Source: a virus
Virus genome (UHGV): UHGV-1773340
Length of the DNA: 13,707 bases
Strand: one strand, 5' to 3'
The translations under genes and the position numbers were made by a program. Under the pieces are notes generated by a model, which saw only the letters and a list, made by a program, of their open reading frames with translations, searched no databases and had not been told where the DNA came from. Shown here in pieces: positions 1 through 10,216 of this stretch; the first letter of the stretch is position 1, and each line of letters opens with the position of its first letter.

Positions 1-114
1 GGGATGGCGGCGGCACAGGGGGCCAAGACGCTAAGCGAAGCTAAAACTTCGGATCCGAGTGTGTTGTCAGCTATGGCGAATGCAGTTAGTGGTCAGGGTG
101 GGCAATCACAATGA
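1..114 (+). CDS. 3' end of an upstream gene that runs off the window start; probably portal protein C-terminus (5'-truncated here)
   Basis: Frame 1 is open from position 1 to the TGA at 112..114 (…GMAAAQGAKTLSEAKTSDPSVLSAMANAVSGQGGQSQ*). The stop overlaps the ATG of the next gene (ATGA at 111..114). The portal call is inferred only from its position upstream of scaffold and capsid. Confidence 0.45.
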   Translation, partial: GMAAAQGAKTLSEAKTSDPSVLSAMANAVSGQGGQSQ

Positions 115-407
115 CAGATTACGAAGACGATCAACTGAAAGAAGAAAACGCCCGTAAGCAACGTGACATGGCGCAGCGTGAAATTGATGACATTCGCTTT
201 GTCATGAGCAGTGAACAGGGACGTCGCGTTGTCTGGTCGGTGCTGGAGAAAGGCCGTGTGTTTTCCGCTATCTCACCGATGGACGCTATGGCAATGGCAT
301 TTAATGAGGGGCAACGCAATCTGGCGCTGGAACTGTTTCAGCGCGTTATGGCGCATTGCCCTGAACAGTATTTGAAGATGGCCAAAGAGGCCAGTGAACA
401 GGAGTGA
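111..407 (+). CDS. small 98-aa phage protein of unknown function, between the upstream (portal?) gene and the scaffolding gene
   Basis: Complete ORF with an ATG start overlapping the upstream stop. Charged, helical-looking composition. From memory it resembles the small Bbp19-like proteins of BPP-1-type phages; this is unverified. Confidence 0.6.
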   Translation: MTDYEDDQLKEENARKQRDMAQREIDDIRFVMSSEQGRRVVWSVLEKGRVFSAISPMDAMAMAFNEGQRNLALELFQRVMAHCPEQYLKMAKEASEQE

Positions 408-409
408 TC

Positions 410-1105
410 ATGAATTTATTTGAGCGTTTGCTGTATCGCCGTCTTTGCAATGAGCAACAAGTCGATGGTGGGGCAGCTCCGGCTGCGTCAGAACCGTCAG
501 CGCATGCAGGTGATAACCCTGCTCCAGCTGGTGATCCATCACAACAGGAAGGTGATAAGCCACAACCTGTTGTTGATGTCGATAAACCTGATGATGAAAA
601 AAAATCTGAAAACGATAAACAGGGTGAAAAAAAGGACGGCGATAAACCAGATGGTGCGCCGGAGAAGTACGAATTTCATGCTGCCGAAGGCGTAGAGCTG
701 GATACAGAAGCGTTGAAGGAATTCGAGCCGGTGGCGCGAGAACTTAACCTGACCAACGAGCAAGCGCAAAAGCTGGTTGATGCTTATCCGAAGATTCTGG
801 CAGGTGTTCAGCAGCGCCAGGCAGAAGCCTGGCAGAAAACAACCGAGCAGTGGGCTGCGGATGTAAAAGCTGACAAAGAAATCGGTGGCGACAAGTTGAT
901 TTCTAACCTTAGCGTCGCACAGCGTGCGCTTGACCAGTTCGGGACACCTGAACTCAAAGAATATCTGAACACCACCGGGCTGGGTAATCACCCTGATCTG
1001 GTCAAAACGTTCGTGAAAATCGGAAAGGCGATGTCTGAAGATGGCATGGTCACCGGTGGTAATGAAGGCCAGCGTAGTGCGGCCGAAGTGCTCTATGGCA
1101 AATAA
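410..1105 (+). CDS. putative scaffolding protein (231 aa)
   Basis: Sits immediately upstream of the major capsid gene. AGGAG at 400..404 lies 5 nt before the ATG at 410; the track's GTG at 404 is less likely. The N-terminal third is acidic, Pro/Lys/Asp/Glu-rich and low-complexity, followed by helical Gln/Ala/Glu-rich segments, as is typical of scaffolding proteins. Confidence 0.6.
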   Translation: MNLFERLLYRRLCNEQQVDGGAAPAASEPSAHAGDNPAPAGDPSQQEGDKPQPVVDVDKPDDEKKSENDKQGEKKDGDKPDGAPEKYEFHAAEGVELDTEALKEFEPVARELNLTNEQAQKLVDAYPKILAGVQQRQAEAWQKTTEQWAADVKADKEIGGDKLISNLSVAQRALDQFGTPELKEYLNTTGLGNHPDLVKTFVKIGKAMSEDGMVTGGNEGQRSAAEVLYGK

Positions 1106-1119
1106 GAGAGGAAATGACA

Positions 1120-2106
1120 ATGGCTGTTAAAGGCTTAACTGCGCTAACGCTGGCTGACTGGGGTAAGCGCGTCGATCCAAACGGGAAAGTCGATAAGATT
1201 ATCGAGCTTCTCGGTCAAACAAACCCGATCCTTCAGGATATGCCTTTTGTCGAAGGGAACCTTCCTACCGGACACCGAACCACCATTCGTTCTGGTTTAC
1301 CTTCAGCTACCTGGCGTTTGCTGAACTATGGCGTACAGCCAAGCAAATCAACCACAGTGCAGGTCACCGATTCCGTTGGCATGTTGGAAACCTATGCTGA
1401 AGTCGATAAGTCACTGGCTGATCTGAACGGTAATACCGCCGAATTCCGCCTGTCTGAAGACCGCGCATTTATTGAAGCGATGAATCAGCAGATGGCGCAG
1501 ACGTTGTTTTATGGTGATTCCAGCGTTAACCCTCAGCAGTTTATGGGATTGTCCTCCCGCTATTCCAGCCTGTCTGCGGGTAATGCTCAGAACATTATTG
1601 ATGCTGGTGGCACGGGTACAGATAACACCTCAATCTGGTTAGTGGTGTGGGGCGAAAACACCGTGCATGGCATCTTCCCGAAAGGGCAGAAGGCTGGCAT
1701 CCAGATGGAAGATAAAGGCCAGGTGACACTGGAAGATGCGAATGGCGGCAAGTACGAAGGCTACCGTACCCATTACAAATGGGACAACGGACTTGCTCTG
1801 CGTGACTGGCGTTATGTTGTTCGCATTGCAAACATCGATGTCAGCAATCTTTCAGAACCTTCCTCTGCCGCAAATATTGCGAAGTTGATGGTTAAAGCAC
1901 TGCATCGCATTCCAAACCGTGGCATGGGCCGCCCGGTGTTCTACATGAACCGCACTGTAGGCCAGGCTCTTGATCTACAGTCTCTGGAGAAAACATCTCT
2001 GGCTATCAGCGTAAAAGAGACTGAAGGCGAGTGGTGGACTTCATTCCGTGGTGTACCAATCCGTGAAACTGACGCACTTCTGGAAACAGAAGCCCGCGTG
2101 GTGTAA
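1120..2106 (+). CDS. major capsid protein (HK97-fold type), about 328 aa
   Basis: About 330 aa, directly after the scaffold gene, with the size and composition of podovirus major capsid proteins. GAGAGGA at 1106..1112 is better spaced for the ATG at 1120 than for the track's ATG at 1114, which remains an alternative. A stem-loop follows the stop. Confidence 0.75.
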   Translation: MAVKGLTALTLADWGKRVDPNGKVDKIIELLGQTNPILQDMPFVEGNLPTGHRTTIRSGLPSATWRLLNYGVQPSKSTTVQVTDSVGMLETYAEVDKSLADLNGNTAEFRLSEDRAFIEAMNQQMAQTLFYGDSSVNPQQFMGLSSRYSSLSAGNAQNIIDAGGTGTDNTSIWLVVWGENTVHGIFPKGQKAGIQMEDKGQVTLEDANGGKYEGYRTHYKWDNGLALRDWRYVVRIANIDVSNLSEPSSAANIAKLMVKALHRIPNRGMGRPVFYMNRTVGQALDLQSLEKTSLAISVKETEGEWWTSFRGVPIRETDALLETEARVV

Positions 2107-2122
2107 CGCCTGTTATTAACCT

Positions 2123-2142
2123 GTGGGCCGCAACAGGCCCAC
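2123..2142 (+). promoter_or_regulatory. perfect 7-bp stem-loop (GTGGGCC-GCAACA-GGCCCAC) in the capsid/next-gene intergenic region; possible mRNA processing or stability element or attenuator
   Basis: Inverted repeat read directly: 2123..2129 pairs with 2136..2142 around a 6-nt loop. There is no U-tract after it, so it is not a canonical intrinsic terminator. Confidence 0.4.
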
Positions 2143-2157
2143 TAATGGAGAAAGAAG

Positions 2158-2595
2158 ATGATCACCGACAAACTGTTGATGTTCTCCGAAGCACAGGCGG
2201 TAACTGATACCGCGGCTTCTACTGACGTAATCGATCTCGGTCCAATTGACGGAAACCGTCGCGATATCGGTGTGGGTTACCCGCTTGAGTTTTGGGTGCT
2301 GGTTAACGAAGCCGCCACGGCAAGTGGTGAGGCAACTGTAAACATCCAGTTGCAGACGAGTGAGAATAACAGCTCATGGTCCACTATTTATGATAGTGGC
2401 GCACTGGCAAAGGCTACCCTGACAGCAGGTAAACGAGTTGTTTCTGCAAAGGTGCCTGCCGGTGTTCAGCGATATCTGCGTGTTAACTACTCCGTCGCAA
2501 CTGGCCCACTAACGGCCGGCAAATTCACTGCGGGTATCAGTCTGGATGTTGATGCCAATACGCCGTACCCGATCCGCTCAAAAGTAACTGGTTAA
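2158..2595 (+). CDS. 145-aa protein; candidate capsid decoration/cement protein
   Basis: GGAG at 2147..2150 lies 7 nt before the ATG at 2158. It is immediately downstream of the capsid gene and has a Thr/Ser/Ala/Gly/Val-rich, beta-type composition. The functional call is by position and size only. Confidence 0.65.
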   Translation: MITDKLLMFSEAQAVTDTAASTDVIDLGPIDGNRRDIGVGYPLEFWVLVNEAATASGEATVNIQLQTSENNSSWSTIYDSGALAKATLTAGKRVVSAKVPAGVQRYLRVNYSVATGPLTAGKFTAGISLDVDANTPYPIRSKVTG

Positions 2596-2605
2596 GGTGA
2601 TATCG

Positions 2606-2941
2606 ATGTCAGGTAAGAAACCAAGATACCGCGTTCTGCGCCTCTCTCATATCCATAACACACTGTGGCAGGAGGGGGCAGAAATCGAATACGAAGGTGA
2701 GCCTGGTAGCGCACTGGAACCTGTTAACGATGCAGCCAGACAGGCAAAAGCAAAGGTAGCAGGAAAGGTGTCTATGGCAGCAACCAGCACCAAAATCATC
2801 AACGATGTGTCAGATGATGGTGAACTGGATAAGCTCCGTGAAGAGTACGAATTGCTCTTTAACGAGAAGCCACACCATAACGCTAAAGCCGAAACGATCC
2901 GCGAGAAGATCGCAGATAAGCGTAAAGAACTGGGCGTGTAA
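2606..2941 (+). CDS. hypothetical highly charged small virion-module protein (111 aa)
   Basis: ATG at 2606 is preceded by AAGGTGA at 2594..2600; the track's GTG at 2597 is less likely. Lys/Glu/Arg-rich. Followed by a terminator-like hairpin. Confidence 0.55.
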   Translation: MSGKKPRYRVLRLSHIHNTLWQEGAEIEYEGEPGSALEPVNDAARQAKAKVAGKVSMAATSTKIINDVSDDGELDKLREEYELLFNEKPHHNAKAETIREKIADKRKELGV

Positions 2942-2957
2942 GCCTCGCGAATCCGAC

Positions 2958-2980
2958 AAGGGGCTTCGGCCCCTTTATTG
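2958..2980 (+). terminator. candidate rho-independent terminator or attenuator (AAGGGGC-TTCG-GCCCCTT followed by TATTG)
   Basis: A 7-bp stem with five G:C pairs and a TTCG tetraloop (2958..2975), followed by a T-rich tail to 2980. It starts 16 nt after the TAA at 2939..2941. Confidence 0.5.
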
Positions 2981-2991
2981 CAGGAGTGTAT

Positions 2992-3315
2992 ATGGAACTC
3001 GTAAACCTCAAAACCGGCACTGACAGCTACCAGGATGAGAGCGGAGAAACCAGAACTCGCGATGAATACCCGTGGGGGCTGTGCATCACTCTTAATAACG
3101 ACACATTGAATAAGCTGAAGGCGCAACCTCAGGGCGTCGGAACAGAAGTGATGATAACTGCAAAGGCTGTTATTCGAGGCCTGTCTGCCAGAGAAACTGA
3201 CGATGGTGTTAATCGCAGCGCCGATCTGCAGATCACTGATATGGCGATCGCTCCTGTTTCCGGGGATGTAGAAAAATCAGCGGCTGAAACTCTGTACGGT
3301 AACGGAGGTGAGTGA
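2992..3315 (+). CDS. hypothetical 107-aa protein; its C-terminus shares the SAAE-x-LYG motif with the scaffolding protein
   Basis: AGGAG at 2982..2986 lies 5 nt before the ATG at 2992; the track's GTG at 2986 is less likely. The stop TGA at 3313..3315 overlaps the next start. Confidence 0.6.
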   Translation: MELVNLKTGTDSYQDESGETRTRDEYPWGLCITLNNDTLNKLKAQPQGVGTEVMITAKAVIRGLSARETDDGVNRSADLQITDMAIAPVSGDVEKSAAETLYGNGGE

Positions 3316-3920
3316 TGGCCTCTGTAGTAGAGATCTGTAATCGTGCGCTGTCCAATATTGGCAATAGCCGCAGCATTAACAGCCTGACGGAAGCCAGCAA
3401 GGAAGCGGGGGAATGTTCGCTGCACTTTGAGGCCTGCCGTGATGCTGTGCTTTCTGATTTTGACTGGAACTTTGCTACCAAACGCGTGGCGCTTGCAGAT
3501 ACGAGCAATCCACCGCCTGACTGGGAATATGCGTACCAGTACCCGTCCGATTGTCTGCGCATTACTGAAATTATGCTTCCTGGTGTACGCAATCCAACAG
3601 CAGCAATGCGCGTTCAGTACGAAGTTGGTGCAGACACCAACGGAACAGGAAAATTGATCTATACAGACCAGCCGCAGGCATGGCTCAAGTATGTCTCTCG
3701 CGTTTCAGATGTGAACATGTTTGATGCCATTTTTATGGAGGCGCTGGCCTGGCGTCTTGCGGCAGCCATTAACATGGCGCTGACTGGGAATGCGGATCTC
3801 GGTACATTTGCTCTCAATATGTACAATCGCGTGATTCTTAGTGCTGGTTCGCATAGCCAGAATGAATCACAGGAACCACAGCCACCGGTTGACGAGTTTA
3901 CCATTGCGAGGTTGTCCTGA
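3315..3920 (+). CDS. tail tubular protein A-like (T7 gp11-like adaptor/gatekeeper), 201 aa
   Basis: About 200 aa, immediately upstream of an ~820-aa protein, matching the gp11/gp12 pairing. GGAGGTG at 3304..3310 precedes the ATG at 3315 (TGATG overlap). The N-terminal pattern recalls T7 gp11 from memory. Confidence 0.6.
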   Translation: MASVVEICNRALSNIGNSRSINSLTEASKEAGECSLHFEACRDAVLSDFDWNFATKRVALADTSNPPPDWEYAYQYPSDCLRITEIMLPGVRNPTAAMRVQYEVGADTNGTGKLIYTDQPQAWLKYVSRVSDVNMFDAIFMEALAWRLAAAINMALTGNADLGTFALNMYNRVILSAGSHSQNESQEPQPPVDEFTIARLS

Positions 3921-6391
3921 TGGCTATCAGTTGGATCCAGCCCAGCTTTGCTGGTGGTGAGATTGGACCGTCGTTGTACGGTCGTATCGACATGGCGAAG
4001 TACCAGGTGGCATTGCGCAAGTGCGATAACTTTATCGTGCGGCAGTATGGCGGCGTTGAGAATCGACCTGGTACGCGTTTTGTCGGTGCCGCCAAATACC
4101 CAAATCGGAAATGCCGCCTGATCCCGTTCCAGTTCTCGACGGTTCAGACTTATGCTCTGGAGTTCGGACACCAGTACATGCGCGTTATCAAAGATGGTGC
4201 GTTGGTGCTGAACAGCAGCAATGTTATTTATGAAATTGCCACGCCATATACTGAAGCCGATCTGTTCCGAATTAAATTCACGCAAAGCGCAGACGTGCTT
4301 ACGCTTGTTCATCCGGCATACCCGCCGAAAGAGTTGCGTCGCTATGCGCATGACAACTGGCAACTGGTTGATGTGGTAACGAAGAACGGACCATTTGAAG
4401 ATATCAATATTGACGAGTCAGTGACGGTTTATGCCAGCGCCAGCACCGGGACAATTACGTTAACGGCAAGCGCCTCTATTTTTGGCGCGGAGCAGGTAGG
4501 CAAATTGTTCTATCTGGAACAGCCTGCAGTGGATTCAGTGCCGGTATGGGAAACCAGTAAGAGTACGTCGATTGGCGATATTCGCCGTGCAGACAGTAAC
4601 TACTATCGCGCCGTTACAGCAGGCAAAACAGGTACTTTGCGCCCTTCGCATACAGAAGGCACATCATGGGATGGCTGGGGCGGATCCGGTGATGATGATA
4701 CTGGTATTGAGTGGGAATATCTGCACAGTGGTTTTGGCATTGCCCGTATCACTGCTGCAAATGGAACTACTGCAACTGCCGAGGTGATTTCCTATATCCC
4801 TTCGCAGGTCGTTGGCGAGGATAATGCCAGCTATAAATGGGCTAAATATGCCTGGAACAGTGTTAATGGTTATCCTGGCACTGTTGTTTATTATCAACAA
4901 CGTCTTTACTTCGCCGCATCGACTGCGTTCCCTCAGACTATCTGGGCCAGCCGTACCGGGGATTATAAGGATTTTGGCAAAAGCAATCCTACGCAGGATG
5001 ACGACAGAATTATCTACACCTATGCCGGGCGTCAGGTTAATGAGATCCGCCACCTGATTGATGTTGGTTCGCTGGTGGCGCTGACTTCCGGAGGTGAGTA
5101 CGTCATCACCGGCGACCAGAACAAAGTATTAACCCCATCATCATTTGCATTCAGCTCTCAGGGATCAAATGGCTCGAGCAATGTCCCACCAATTGCCGTG
5201 GCGAATATTGCTCTGTTCGTCCAGGAGAAAGGCAGTGTTGTCCGTGATCTGGCCTACTCATTCGATGTTGACGGCTATCAGGGGAACGACCTGACCATCC
5301 TTGCTAATCATCTTTTTCAGAAGCACAGCATCGTTGACTGGTGCTTCTCTATTGTCCCTTACTCCAGCGCCTTCTGCATTCGTGATGACGGTAAATTACT
5401 GGTGATGACCTATTTGCGTGATCAACAGGTTTTTGCATGGGCACCACAGTCCAGTACCGGAAAATATGAAAGCACATGCAGTATCAGCGAAGGAAATGAA
5501 GATGCGGTGTATTTCGTCGTTAACCGAACCGTTAACGGGCAAACAGTGAGATACATCGAGCGGCTGTCCAGCCGTTTATTTACCAGCGATGAAGATGCTT
5601 TCTTTGTTGATTCTGGCCTTAGCTATGATGGAAGAAATACGTCTGACAGAACGATGACCATCACTGGTGGTTCTGGTGAATGGGATTACCGTGCGGAATA
5701 TACAATCAGTGTTTCTGGTGGTGCGTACTTCACCAGTAGTGATGTCGGCGCGCAACTACAGTTCCCTTATACCGGAACTGTTCCTGATACTGGCGATGAA
5801 GTGTCAAAAGAATTACGTTGCGACATTATTTCTGTAACCAGCAATACCGCTGTAGTGGTTCGTGCTAACAGGAACGTCCCGCCATCCCTCAGGAGTGTGG
5901 CCACCACGAACTGGCAGATGGCGCGCCGGACATTTGGAGGCCTGTCTCATCTTGAAGGCCAGGCCGTAAACATTCTCTCTGATGCGAACGTGGAACCACA
6001 GAAAGTGGTTTCCGGAGGTGCCGTCACGCTGGAATCTCCGGGGGCTGTAGTGCACATCGGCCTGCCAATAACTGCTGAATTCGAAACACTGGATATCAAC
6101 ATTAACGGACAGGAAACGCTGCTGGATAAAAAACAGGTAACCCCCTCCGTTACTCTGGTTGTGAATGCCAGTCGCGGCATCTGGGCGACTACGCCCGGCG
6201 GTAAATGGTACGAATATCCACAGCGTGAATTCGAGTTCTACGATGATCCTGTTGATGATGCTACCGGAAAAGTAGAAGTGAAACTGGACAGTAACTGGGG
6301 CAAAAACGGACGTGTAAAAATCCGTCAGCTTGACCCGTTGCCGCTGTCTGTTCTTGCCGTTATTCCTCGCCTTACTGTTGGGGGATTCTGA
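3920..6391 (+). CDS. tail tubular protein B-like (T7 gp12-like nozzle), 823 aa
   Basis: 823 aa. The N-terminus (MAISWIQPSFAGGEIGPSLYGR…ENRPGTRF) resembles the remembered T7 gp12 N-terminus (…KNLKGGISQQP…LQKRPP…). Gene order and TGATG coupling to the previous gene support the call. Confidence 0.65.
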   Translation: MAISWIQPSFAGGEIGPSLYGRIDMAKYQVALRKCDNFIVRQYGGVENRPGTRFVGAAKYPNRKCRLIPFQFSTVQTYALEFGHQYMRVIKDGALVLNSSNVIYEIATPYTEADLFRIKFTQSADVLTLVHPAYPPKELRRYAHDNWQLVDVVTKNGPFEDINIDESVTVYASASTGTITLTASASIFGAEQVGKLFYLEQPAVDSVPVWETSKSTSIGDIRRADSNYYRAVTAGKTGTLRPSHTEGTSWDGWGGSGDDDTGIEWEYLHSGFGIARITAANGTTATAEVISYIPSQVVGEDNASYKWAKYAWNSVNGYPGTVVYYQQRLYFAASTAFPQTIWASRTGDYKDFGKSNPTQDDDRIIYTYAGRQVNEIRHLIDVGSLVALTSGGEYVITGDQNKVLTPSSFAFSSQGSNGSSNVPPIAVANIALFVQEKGSVVRDLAYSFDVDGYQGNDLTILANHLFQKHSIVDWCFSIVPYSSAFCIRDDGKLLVMTYLRDQQVFAWAPQSSTGKYESTCSISEGNEDAVYFVVNRTVNGQTVRYIERLSSRLFTSDEDAFFVDSGLSYDGRNTSDRTMTITGGSGEWDYRAEYTISVSGGAYFTSSDVGAQLQFPYTGTVPDTGDEVSKELRCDIISVTSNTAVVVRANRNVPPSLRSVATTNWQMARRTFGGLSHLEGQAVNILSDANVEPQKVVSGGAVTLESPGAVVHIGLPITAEFETLDININGQETLLDKKQVTPSVTLVVNASRGIWATTPGGKWYEYPQREFEFYDDPVDDATGKVEVKLDSNWGKNGRVKIRQLDPLPLSVLAVIPRLTVGGF

Positions 6392-6855: not shown

Positions 6856-7400
6856 TGTGCGATCCGGTTATTGCTGGTGGCGCAATGCTCGCCATGAGTG
6901 GCATTCAGGCATACACCCAGTACCAACAGGGAAAGTATGCCTCGAAGGTTGCAGAAGCGAACGCAGATATAGCCACAGCTCAGGCAAATGATGCAATAAA
7001 CAGAGGTAACGCTGAAGCTGAGCAACGGCGCAGAGAGACCCGACAGCGGCTTGGTACACAGGCGGCGACAATGGGGGCTACCGGCGCTGATTTATCTACA
7101 GGTAACGCGCTGGATATATTTGGCGACACTGCCCAGTTTGGCGCTCTTGATTCTCTGACGACGGTGAATAACGCGCAACGCGAGGCTTACGGTTATCAGG
7201 TTCAGGCTGCCAACTATAAAGCAGAAGCCAGTTCAGTCCGTAAACAGGGGAATGTGGGAGCAGCAACAACATTGCTCACTGCGCCTCTGAAGGCATACGG
7301 TGCGTACCAGATGTTTGGTGGGACGTGGAGTCCGTTTACTCAAAGCACCCCTGCGCCAATCGGGGCAGCAGCAGGAACCAGATTACCCGGAGGATTATAA
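6855..7400 (+). CDS. internal virion protein B-like (T7 gp14-like), 181 aa
   Basis: The N-terminus [20 protein letters not shown]… recalls the T7 gp14 N-terminus (MC…I…SGAQA…). The protein is Ala/Gly/Gln-rich, about the same size as gp14, and in the gp14 position. GGAGAG at 6843..6848 precedes the start; TAATG overlap. Confidence 0.6.
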
Positions 7401-10216
7401 TGCCAGTCGTACCAACAGTATCCGGCCGTCAGGTTCAGAGCCGTGGAGTTCAGTCAGCAGGCTTGCAGACGTTTTCTCAGCCAGGTATTGGTGATGCTTT
7501 TGTTCGGGCAGGGACAGAGGCAATTGATGTTTTTGGTCAGGCAAAACAGCGTGCCAATATCGCTCTGGCTCAGGAGGCATCTCTTAACCTCAGTCAGATA
7601 AGCAGTGATCTGCTGAATAATCCTGAAACAGGATTGCTTAACCTGAAAGGGAAAAATGCTATTGGAAAAGGTCAGGAGTATACGCAGCAGTTTGATGCTC
7701 AGGTCGAACAACTGGCTATGTCGCTGCCGGATGAACAGGCTCGTAATGCTTTCATGCAGCAGGCGCAGCAGCAGCGCATTCAGTTCACTACGCAGGCAGG
7801 GCGGCACGAGATAGGGCAAATAAATGCCTACGAAGAAGGCCAGTTTCAGGCTACGCTGCTGAACAATGGTAAAAATTCCGCAGCATTGTATGGCGACAAC
7901 GCCGCATACGTATTGGCTAATAAGCAAACTTTCCAGCAAATTGAGGATTACGGCATTGCACATGGCTGGAGTGACGAGCAAATCCAGGCCAAGAAAATCG
8001 AGTTTAAAGAGAAGGTTGCTGATGCTGCATTGTCCCAGTGGTCAGCAAATAACGCGATCGGCTTCATTCAGAGCAACGGTGAGCTGAGCGACACGGTAGC
8101 CGGTTCACGGCGGGCTACTGTTAACCCTTATGGTGGTGAGCCATCATCTACGAAAGGAATGGTTACCCAGGGGAACATTAACTTATTCAACCGACCATCT
8201 GTAAAAAACGAAGATGGTACTATCAGCACGGTAAGAACTATTTCCATAGGCACTGATGCAGGTGAAGTCCTGATACCAACGGTCAGTGATGACGGTAAAT
8301 TACTTTCAGATGATGAAGCAATCGCGCTATATGAAAAAACAGGAAAGCACCTTGGAATATTTGATAATCCTGATGATGCGACTGCATATGCTGAAAAGTT
8401 GCACGAGCAGCAAGATCAGTATTATGTGAAAGGTGATAGCGGCGATGCCAGGGGTATCCGCAACAATAACCCAGGAAACCTTGAAGCCAGCTCATCAAAC
8501 CCATGGATTGGGCAGACTGGTAGTGATGGCCGGTTTGCAAAATTCGAGACTCCGGAGCATGGGATCCGCGCGCTGGGCCGCAACCTCATATCCTACCAGC
8601 GACAGGGGATTGATACCGTTGGCGAGATCATTAACCGTTGGGCGCCGCCGTCTGACAATAACGACACGGCTGCATACATCAAAGCAGTTTGCGCGCAGTT
8701 AGGCGTAACGGCAAACCAGCCTCTTGACGCTTCCAATCCTGACACGCTGCAGGCACTCTGTGCCGCCATCATTAAGCATGAAAACGGCAGTCAGCCATAC
8801 AGCCAGGATCAGTTGTCCACCGGCGTCAGCGCAGCTCTTGGGCTGTCACAGTTGCCAACCAGCAATAAACGCTACACCGGCAATGCAGCATTCGACGCCG
8901 CCACGCCGGAAGCGCAGGCCACTTTTCTGCGCCAGGCTGATCAGATCCGCCGGCAGCAGCAGGCCGAATACAGAACGGTTATCGATAGCCAGGTTCGCGA
9001 CGCCACCGCGGCTTACATGCGAGGTGTTGAGTTCCCAAACCCGCCAGGGGAAGCTGATTTTATGGCTGCCTACGGCGTGCGGGAGGGAAACCAGCGTTAC
9101 ACCGAATTCAGGAATACGCAGATTGCCGGGCAGTACATTGGCTCATTCCGCAACATGCCGACAAGCAGCATTACAGCATATGTTGAGCAATTACGCCCGG
9201 ATACTGGTGAGACAGGGGAGGGTTATGCGGCACGAGCCGCTCTTTATGACAACGTTGTGTCGGCTGCAAGTCAGGTGATAAAGCAGCGACAGGCTGATCC
9301 TGTACAGTTCTCTCTTGCCGCCGGACAGGCAAAGCCTATCGACATGAGCAATAAGGATAACTTTGGACAGAGCGTTGCCTTGCGTGCTGCTCAGGTCAGT
9401 GACCTTGCTAAGTCATATGGCACTCCACTGACGTTCTTTTCCAAAGACGAGGCCAATCAGATCGGTGTTTTCTTTCGTGATGCGCCCGTTTCCCAACAGG
9501 CAGCATATCTCGATACCATCAGGCAGAGCACTGGTGGTGGGCAGGTGTATATGTCAGCACTACAGCAGATCAGTGCCAACGCTCCATCTGCTGCCGTTGC
9601 CGGGATACTGATGGATAAGCCTGGTGGTATTTTGGCAGAAAAAAACTGGTTTAATCCGGATGTTTCCGTGTCTCCTGAAACCGCTGCGCAGACAATTCTT
9701 GCTGGCGCGGCGGCTCGTAAAGGTACTGATGATGCGAAAGGTATTCCGATGCCTAAAGATGCTGATCTTCGCCTTGAGTTTTCTGACATGGTGAAGGATG
9801 CATTTGCTGGTGACGCTCAGGGGGCATCAATGGCATACGAGATCGCAAAGGATTATTACGCTGGTGTGATGGCGAAAAAAGGCGTGGTATCAGGCGAAAT
9901 TGACAATGATGTCTGGAAACAGGCTGTTAACGTAGCTACAGGTGGCGTGCATGACTATAACGGAATGGGGAATGTCCTTTTGCCGTGGGGAATGTCTGCA
10001 GAGCAATTCGATAAGCAGGTTAATCAGGCTTGGAATGAACAAGTTGTCGGCTCCGGGATAAAAACACCGCCTGGTCAGTATGGTTTGCAAAGTTACGGCG
10101 ATAGTCAGTACCTGGTGAAACTTGGTACTGGTTATCTGCTGAAAGATGATGGTTCTCCCGTTGTTCTTAATCTGACACAGAAGCGTCAGAGATTCTCCGG
10201 AGATATTCCGCAATGA
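7400..10216 (+). CDS. large internal virion/ejection protein (938 aa) at the gp15 position, with a central conserved-looking module
   Basis: GGAGGA at 7389..7394 lies 5 nt before the ATG at 7400, which overlaps the upstream TAA. The track's start at 7325 would overlap the upstream gene by 75 nt and is rejected. A central segment (nt about 8440..8830: …[45 protein letters not shown]…[13 protein letters not shown]…) looks like a globular, possibly enzymatic domain. Confidence 0.7.

Follow-up and report, generated by a model that had tools for sequence, protein, structure and literature searches.

INTRODUCTION

In herpesviruses (UL26/UL26.5) and in phage lambda (C/Nu3), nested genes give rise to proteins that share a C-terminal coat-binding tail, and both proteins enter the procapsid. 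Terminal tags that direct passengers to the inside of an HK97-fold shell are found in the cargo-loading peptides of encapsulins and in the capsid-targeting sequence of phage T4. The CpmB protein of SaPI1 and the scaffold of phage 80alpha share a C-terminal helix-and-hook (RIIK), which occupies the same coat-protein site, the N-arm, in the procapsid (PMC5644958). Here, a short peptide was analyzed that is shared by the C-termini of two proteins encoded in virus genome UHGV-1773340: the scaffolding protein and a 107-amino-acid (aa) homologue of gp10 from phage epsilon15 (hereafter gp10-like). The stretch of DNA studied, 13,707 nucleotides (nt) in length and referred to throughout as the window, is the head-to-tail structural module of an epsilon15-like podophage. 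Its closest relatives are Escherichia phages phiV10, PAS61 and phiv142-3, with 96–97% identity to the window.

The 80alpha/CpmB pair is the closest precedent for this locus: in both cases, a small protein of unrelated fold ends in the C-terminal motif of the resident scaffold. CpmB, however, is an alpha-helical dimer encoded by a satellite that hijacks the phage and changes its capsid size, and its binding is known, whereas here both genes belong to one phage genome, the small protein is predicted to be beta-rich, the motif reads A-A-x-x-L-Y-G/P and binding is a prediction. In every lineage examined, the gp10-like gene lies in the head module of the phage itself and not in a satellite. As with UL26/UL26.5 and C/Nu3, two head-assembly proteins carry one tail, but here the genes are separate rather than nested (1.9 kb apart), are unrelated and encode the tail with different codons. 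The tags of encapsulins and T4 are similar in being short terminal peptides on flexible linkers, present on several unrelated proteins of one particle. They differ in that the T4 signal is N-terminal and cleaved, encapsulins dispense with a scaffold and the sequence motif is another one; loading is, for the peptide described here, a prediction.

RESULTS

The scaffold and the gp10-like protein of the window end in the same peptide

The motif SAAE[V/T]LYG, which a preliminary description of the window had placed at both C-termini, was found there exactly as claimed in position and sequence. The scaffold ends in QRSAAEVLYGK, with Ser223 encoded at nt 1076, and the gp10-like protein ends in EKSAAETLYGNGGE, with Ser96 encoded at nt 3277. 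Seven of the eight motif residues are identical in the two copies, and the codons differ for five of these seven, including AGT versus TCA for the serine (AGT GCG GCC GAA GTG CTC TAT GGC in the scaffold gene; TCA GCG GCT GAA ACT CTG TAC GGT in the gp10-like gene). This agrees with the earlier contention that the likeness is held at the protein level and is not the product of a recent DNA duplication.

The C-termini of the 12 window proteins, all of them encoded on the plus strand, were compared over their last 16 residues, the score being that of the best ungapped BLOSUM62 segment. The scaffold and the gp10-like protein were the most similar pair, with a score of 38, the next pair scoring 17. 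In a null model in which one random internal 16-mer was drawn per protein and the maximum over the 66 pairs was kept (1500 trials), the score averaged 21.3 (standard deviation 2.7) and never exceeded 34, giving p<=7e-4 for the observed value.

Weaker echoes of the motif had also been pointed out inside two larger proteins of the window. Both are present, but neither behaves like the terminal motif. That of the 600-aa protein is not terminal and its Tyr is not conserved (VLYGL, VLHGL, VLNGL); it was treated as a probable chance resemblance. In the 938-aa protein (window 7400–10216), the stretch NSAALYGDN, at about residues 157–165, is likewise internal, recurs as AA[L/M/A]YGD in enterobacterial relatives only, is not conserved in Stenotrophomonas, and may simply be part of a folded domain. 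The 938-aa protein is an internal, ejected virion protein, which likewise needs incorporation into the head.

The motif is conserved across both protein families

About 100 loci were gathered from named phages (including epsilon15, BPP-1, Tyrion, PAT1, BcepC6B, CP2, Usme, Jess A, DC33 and zth2-2), IMG/VR contigs and prophages. [LMFIV][YF] and then a small or polar residue occurred in the last 16 residues of 94 of 102 gp10-like proteins and of 89 of 91 scaffolds, and this frequency was unchanged when the scaffold was defined purely by the position of its gene 5' of the gene for the major capsid protein (MCP). In other open reading frames (ORFs) the strict motif was found in 54 cases out of 4788 (1.1%). 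An alignment of orthologues, which had been suggested as a check, thus finds the motif family-wide in both proteins. In a further set of 136 gp10-like representatives (complete, with at most 50% mutual identity), 131 (about 96%) carried the motif, and the architecture consisted of LQITD, 8–25 variable residues, A-x-x-L-Y-[G/P/D/S] and 0–10 terminal residues.

Profiles anchored on the aromatic residue were alike in the two families and read [D/S]-A-A-x-x-L-Y. Ala occupies position −4 in 39 of 46 scaffolds and 37 of 46 gp10-like proteins, Leu occupies position −1 in 38 and 35, and the anchor is Tyr in 40 and 44, respectively. After the Tyr, scaffolds prefer P, G or S and gp10-like proteins prefer G.

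Since the motif is short and made up largely of common residues, there is room for the view that the similarity arose by chance, by recent DNA duplication or by gene conversion. Given the low probability under the null model of the window, conservation in thousands of clusters and the different codons of the two copies, this view is almost certainly wrong, and the orthologue data refute it.

Among the scaffold-centered loci with ample flanks, about half had no gp10-like gene within 10 kb and retained the scaffold motif nonetheless; no substitute motif-bearing protein was found in these phages. Since scaffolds keep the motif without a gp10-like gene, the motif is first a scaffold feature and its receptor is not the gp10-like protein itself, which is, by this distribution across genomes, to be regarded as accessory.

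Additional copies of the motif were found at several places. Some gp10-like proteins end in a tandem double motif, with the copies about 14 residues apart (e.g. ..RATALYGAGSEGSRINNLSNALYGGG). In a freshwater clade comprising Limnohabitans phage DC33 and relatives, the gp10-like gene is directly followed by genes for one or two tiny, very basic proteins that end in SAAEKLYG/P and a Lys-rich tail (..SAAEKLYGKDKDKK and ..MADKMYPAKDKEKKKG). Present on the scaffold, the gp10-like protein and tiny basic proteins, and in duplicated copies, the motif is portable.

Several observations accompany these cases. Double-motif gp10-like proteins are encoded in loci L085 (9007–9375), L129, L162 and L169, and proteins P0252 and P0327 are of this kind as well; L115, L121 and L123 have a degenerate second copy (..LLGG). 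The tiny basic proteins are encoded in L087 (9330–9497), L091 (8565–8744), L167 (9553–10052), L176, L177, L180 and L181. The first of them has about 55 aa and begins with MPGPGLWANIHAKRERIK; the second begins with MPAKTEKQARFMRAV and presumably is DUF3008-like. L087 is the DC33 record itself (PQ492659.1), which GenBank taxonomy places in Inoviridae, yet it holds a 39-kb genome with a podophage-type portal, a scaffold and a gp10-like protein, and is probably misclassified. A relative of the gp9-like protein (phrog_590), in L117 (5890–6081) and L118 (12834–13025), ends in the motif-like ..AAASAPDDVANVFGN (DDVANVFGN); the gp9-like protein of the window ends in ..KIADKRKELGV and lacks the motif.

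In the literature searched, there was no mention of a tail shared by scaffold and gp10-like protein.

The two tails co-vary within genomes

Scaffold and gp10-like protein of the same genome resemble each other in their tails. In epsilon15 the scaffold ends in ..ISAFYPKK and the gp10-like protein in ..KDAFYPDGEDD, with AFYP in both. In BPP-1 the respective ends are ..ARRLYAASNMNP (RRLYAASNMNP) and ..AQRLYGASSMSA (QRLYGASSMSA), in locus L104 ..DAKRFYPNSNMN and ..DARALYPNSSMN, and in L200 ..GADAKRLYPNSNMN and ..GADPKSLYPNSGMT. The BcepC6B scaffold gp07 ends in ..ARAAKLYDKS and its gp10-like neighbor in ..QRAAKFYANTPTT, so that RAAKLY in the former corresponds to RAAKFY in the latter. BcepC6B gp07, missed in a small-set search, was first assigned by position and composition, and a larger iterative search recovered it.

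This co-variation was assessed by permutation, taking as statistic the best ungapped match of the two proteins over their last 18 residues. Tail similarity averaged 24.0 within genomes versus 18.2 between genomes; z was 7.5 with 45 clusters and 4.9 with 17 clusters at 60% identity, and p was <=5e-5 in both cases. The excess persisted when the Leu-Tyr core was excluded (2.89 versus 1.90 identities, p=5e-5). Only 42% of the identical tail residues share their codon and, therefore, tail similarity is held at the protein level across the relatives as it is in the window. In a blind comparison of 4918 ORF C-termini, each with the tail of the scaffold from its locus, gp10-like proteins made up 12 of the 18 anchored matches.

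The tails follow the coat cassette and not the portal

Compared with epsilon15, the window is mosaic. Identity at the protein level amounts to 80% for the portal, 75–80% for the scaffold body, 85% for the adaptor and 88% for the nozzle, but only to 35–43% for the MCP and the cement, gp9-like and gp10-like proteins. In the scaffold, identity collapses from the Gly-rich linker onwards and is 25% over the last 16 alignment columns. At the nucleotide level, identity is 0.7–0.9 over positions 412–1056, 0.2–0.7 over 1057–3330 and about 0.8 from 3331 on. The diverged block, at about 1057–3330, thus begins in the scaffold tail and ends at the gp10-like stop codon, and the portal gene is outside it. 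The MCP of the window is closer to that of Bordetella phage BPP-1 (62%) than to that of epsilon15 (43%), whereas portal, scaffold body and tail genes are epsilon15-like (75–88%).

The same boundary was found between other phages. PAT1 and epsilon15 have portals that are 99% identical and scaffold bodies that are 90% identical, but their MCPs share 43% identity, and they differ in the type of both tails; the final codons of the scaffold gene hold the breakpoint, which matches the left breakpoint between window and epsilon15. Either tail type is therefore functional with one and the same portal, and it is with the coat cassette that the tails move. Salmonella virus PAT1 also has, between its gp5-like and scaffold genes, an extra gene of 546 nt (L084, 3795–4340) that is absent from epsilon15 and whose flanks are 94–98% identical in the two phages.

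Partial Mantel tests were run on 47 dereplicated genomes, with portal, scaffold body and gp10 core as controls. Tail similarity correlated with MCP identity for the scaffold tail (r=0.22, p=0.0005) and for the gp10 tail (r=0.29, p=0.002), correlations that are modest and, partial Mantel tests being known to be liberal, count as supporting evidence only. The corresponding values for portal identity were r=0.01 and r=−0.13.

These data bear on the question of which partner the tails would bind. Scaffolds are known to recruit portals, and the gp10-like gene adjoins the portal gene in most lineages (BPP-1, BcepC6B, JessA, zth2-2, DC33, CP2); both proteins might thus dock on the portal or its vertex, the small one being a portal-associated assembly or head-completion factor. 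This is, however, quite improbable in view of PAT1 and epsilon15, whose tails differ in both proteins next to almost the same portal, of the exclusion of the portal from the diverged cassette, and of a partial correlation with portal identity that is nil or negative once MCP is controlled for. The portal, which had been put forward along with the capsid as docking site, is hence disfavored, and nothing in the results points to the head-completion or plug role that had been considered for the small protein.

The co-inheritance points instead to the MCP as the putative receptor of the motif. All these phages have the coat protein in common, and scaffold C-termini canonically bind to it. Other products of the block are conceivable partners: the tails could bind the cement protein, the gp9-like protein, each other or the gp10-like core, as in a tail-to-core polymerization joined by the scaffold. 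The genes for all three proteins are inherited within the block, and the gp10-like core displays strictly invariant surface motifs, YPWGL and LQITD. Yet about half of the phages in which the scaffold bears the motif have no gp10-like gene, the cement protein lies outside the mature shell, where scaffold is not found, and the gp9-like protein is poorly conserved (17% identity to BPP-1 Bbp15). A partner of this kind is therefore considered unlikely.

A signal read by a host or phage protease or unfoldase, for processing or degradation of both proteins after assembly, is a further option. Both proteins are acidic, belong to the assembly module and expose flexible C-termini, and scaffolds must leave the head. 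The module, however, has no protease gene, the 'peptidase' label of the scaffold having no domain support, and tail variants follow the coat cassette among phages of near-identical hosts (E. coli, Salmonella), which is unexpected for a tag read by the host. We give this option very little weight.

The scaffold is predicted to be all-helical and to end in a motif helix

The scaffold of the window is the orthologue of epsilon15 gp6 and of BPP-1 Bbp18. Its gene directly precedes that of the MCP (410–1105, then 1114), an order repeated in about 90 loci. In the AlphaFold2 model, residues 1–81 are disordered, acidic and proline-rich, residues 99–211 are all-alpha, and a linker (212–223) leads to a helix (224–229) that corresponds to the motif. 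Scaffolding proteins as a class are elongated and all-alpha, have disordered stretches, lack an enzymatic domain and are encoded at this position, and on the predicted architecture and the gene position the 231-aa protein is assigned as a typical member.

Public databases name this family 'peptidase', 'protease' or 'endoprotease' (2520 hits in one search). The scaffold yielded neither a Pfam or NCBIfam domain nor any PDB relative, proteases included. The 'peptidase' annotation was rejected, as it has support neither from a domain nor from a fold and the protein is predicted to be all-helical; the name appears to go back to an old similarity with a gene of a Salmonella prophage and to have spread from there.

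The gp10-like protein and the 'capsid staple' name

Epsilon15 gp10 has been the textbook 'capsid staple' of the first near-atomic cryo-electron microscopy structure of a phage, having reportedly been modeled as an external staple in 2008 and 2013. The 107-aa protein is a clear homologue: it belongs to the epsilon15 gp10 family PF21628 (Pfam E-value 1.1e-51, residues 5–101) and matches the epsilon15 gp10 chain 3J40_N with an E-value of 2.1e-21, or 5.4e-39 in a PDB profile search. The family comprises 3479 clusters at 50% identity, and its NCBI name is 'capsid staple protein'. Sequence and profile searches of the PDB returned no solved relative besides the disputed 3J40 chain.

The AlphaFold2 model of the 107-aa protein (predicted local distance difference test, pLDDT, 77.9) consists of a long beta-hairpin (53–69/72–88), a small N-terminal hairpin and one helix, followed by a disordered linker (89–96) and a short helix (97–101) over the motif. 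It had no fold match to any PDB chain, cement proteins included, and its BFVD matches were family members only. A staple would be expected as a jellyroll or beta-sandwich in the external two-fold density, and the 107-aa protein is predicted to be of neither kind.

In epsilon15, the AlphaFold2 model of the 111-aa gp10 misfits the staple density, whereas that of a 130-aa protein fits it (Hryc and Baker, 2022; PMC9207676). This 130-aa protein is epsilon15 gp8, a homologue of the BPP-1 cement protein Bbp16. The shell consists of MCP and a Bbp16-like jellyroll in BPP-1 (3J4U), PDB 8CJZ and PhiXacm4-11; in the last of these, a CP2-like phage solved at 3.16 Å, the jellyroll was described as cement, and the gp10-like protein (gp18) was listed as 'hypothetical' and is absent from the model (PhiXacm4-11 preprint). 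The window has its own Bbp16-like cement gene (2158–2595), separate from the gp10-like gene. The function behind the family name of gp10 thus appears to belong to the Bbp16-like protein, and the gp10-like family is large and misleadingly named. With the staple density reassigned in 2022, the earlier placement of gp10 can no longer be upheld.

That the 107-aa protein is nonetheless an external staple or decoration protein, resembling the scaffold in its tail for unrelated reasons, has on its side the 3J40 model, the Pfam and NCBI names that follow from it, and the reported presence of gp10 in virions by proteomics (PMC9207676). Against it stand the fit of the Bbp16-like protein, and not of gp10, to the staple density, the jellyroll cements of BPP-1, 8CJZ and PhiXacm4-11, and a predicted beta-hairpin fold that is no jellyroll and has no PDB match; moreover, co-variation with the tail of the scaffold would be without reason in an external protein. 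An external position is, on balance, very improbable.

Two proteins from European Nucleotide Archive contigs, P0021 and P0117, are reciprocal chimeras of gp10-like protein and ClpP protease, joined exactly at QITDMAI; ClpP has a comparable GQ(A)TD(I) stretch. The chimeras are probably an artifact of assembly or gene calling.

A candidate docking peptide for the coat protein

The reading that we favor, and regard as moderately probable, is that the scaffold attaches to the coat protein through the peptide, and that the gp10-like protein gains entry to the procapsid, as a co-scaffold or internal passenger, by carrying a copy. The motif [D/S]-A-A-x-x-L-Y-[G/P] would be a short linear docking motif, namely a short helix with a Leu-Tyr anchor on a flexible linker. 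This helix would be amphipathic, with Ala(−4), Leu(−1) and Tyr(0) fitting into a pocket that the HK97-fold coat protein offers on the procapsid's inner face. By means of the peptide, the scaffold would hold the coat protein and drive procapsid assembly, and the copy on the gp10-like protein would recruit it to the same site while the procapsid assembles, as a co-scaffold or internal passenger and not as an external staple. Both tails would have to fit one coat protein, and would for this reason co-evolve and be exchanged between phages together with the coat-protein gene.

This reading is built on the conservation of the motif, its co-variation, its co-inheritance with the MCP cassette, its independence of the portal and its predicted linker and helix context. 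Physical binding, the MCP as receptor, a site on the interior face and the role of the gp10-like protein once inside are what it predicts. The idea that the small protein may use the docking site of the scaffold, first voiced in the preliminary description, gains strong comparative support from the family-wide occurrence of the motif, the co-variation of the tails and their inheritance with the coat cassette, and these three observations are also compatible with the small protein being a second scaffold.

Several points weigh against this reading, besides the caution due to the Mantel tests. The cassette that links the tails with the MCP also carries the cement and gp9-like genes. The different preferences after the Tyr may mean that the two peptides do not bind identically. 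Published capsid maps of relatives report no inner peptide density; the heads mapped were mature and free of scaffold. Virion proteomics cited in PMC9207676 reportedly detected epsilon15 gp10, and since scaffolds normally leave the head, gp10 must behave differently after assembly. Finally, in Uetakeviruses a terminator-like hairpin precedes the gp10-like gene, the translation of which is coupled to that of the tail adaptor gene.

A broader version of the docking proposal is put forward more tentatively, as a possibility: the tail of the scaffold may have been copied as a portable, encapsulin-like head-loading peptide, with the 'capsid staple' family and the tiny basic proteins as its passengers or co-scaffolds.

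Organization of the window

The features of the window are listed in Table 1. The gp10-like and adaptor genes overlap at TGATG, which holds the stop codon of the first and the ATG of the second. The GC-rich hairpin that precedes the gp10-like gene has a centroid fold energy of −12.7 kcal/mol with an unremarkable z-score, and was not flagged in a simple scan for consensus terminators; the equivalent site of epsilon15 is annotated as a rho-independent terminator, and the hairpin resembles a terminator or attenuator. Another GC-rich inverted repeat (GTGGGCC..GGCCCAC, window 2107–2150) lies directly 3' of the MCP stop codon, has no T-run, and may be an RNA-stabilizing or attenuating hairpin.

Table 1. 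Genes and sequence elements of the window (coordinates in nt)
Feature	Coordinates	Strand	Remarks
Bbp19-like protein	111–407	+	
Scaffolding protein gene, 231 aa	410–1105	+	phrog_458, E-value 6.7e-109; no Pfam domain; just 5' of MCP gene
Scaffold Gly-rich flexible linker, residues 212–222 (GMVTGGNEGQR)	1043–1075	+	non-helical and of low pLDDT in AlphaFold2 model; precedes motif
Scaffold motif copy SAAEVLYG, residues 223–230	1076–1099	+	followed by K and stop
Mosaic cassette: scaffold tail, MCP, cement, gp9-like, gp10-like	1057–3330	+	diverges from epsilon15 as a single block
MCP, HK97 fold, PF20911 (GP7)	1114–2106	+	Pfam E-value 2.1e-149; PDB matches 3J4U_A, 8CJZ_Y, 3J40_A
Bbp16-like jellyroll cement protein	2158–2595	+	PF21190, E-value 9.4e-49; 3J4U_H 'cementing protein', E-value 2.4e-29; 8CJZ_B 'Capsid Decoration Protein', E-value 2.4e-23
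gp9-like small protein, phrog_590	2606–2941	+	function unknown; without motif in window; part of diverged cassette
GC-rich hairpin AAGGGGC-UUCG-GCCCCUU, then UAUU	2958–2975	+	between gp9-like and gp10-like genes
gp10-like protein gene, 107 aa, PF21628	2992–3315	+	ATG at 2992, stop at 3313–3315; AGGAG Shine-Dalgarno 6 nt upstream
gp10-like folded core, residues 1–88	2992–3255	+	invariant YPWGL and LQITD
gp10-like variable disordered linker, residues 89–95	3256–3276	+	pLDDT <50 over residues 92–96
gp10-like motif copy SAAETLYG, residues 96–103	3277–3300	+	followed by NGGE and stop (3313–3315)
Adaptor ('tail tubular A')	3315–3920	+	
Nozzle	3920–6391	+	
Internal virion proteins	from 6391	+	

Implications for the phage family

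Databases still call thousands of gp10 homologues 'capsid staple protein' after the reassignment of 2022. The shared, co-evolving tail is the first concrete and testable clue to the location of gp10, pointing to the interior of the procapsid and there to the coat-protein site at which the scaffold would dock. The tail also serves to define a putative coat-binding element in a very large family of scaffolds misannotated as 'peptidase', an element that is exchanged between phages along with the coat gene. If the proposed role is true, the tag would be usable for loading foreign proteins into phage heads.

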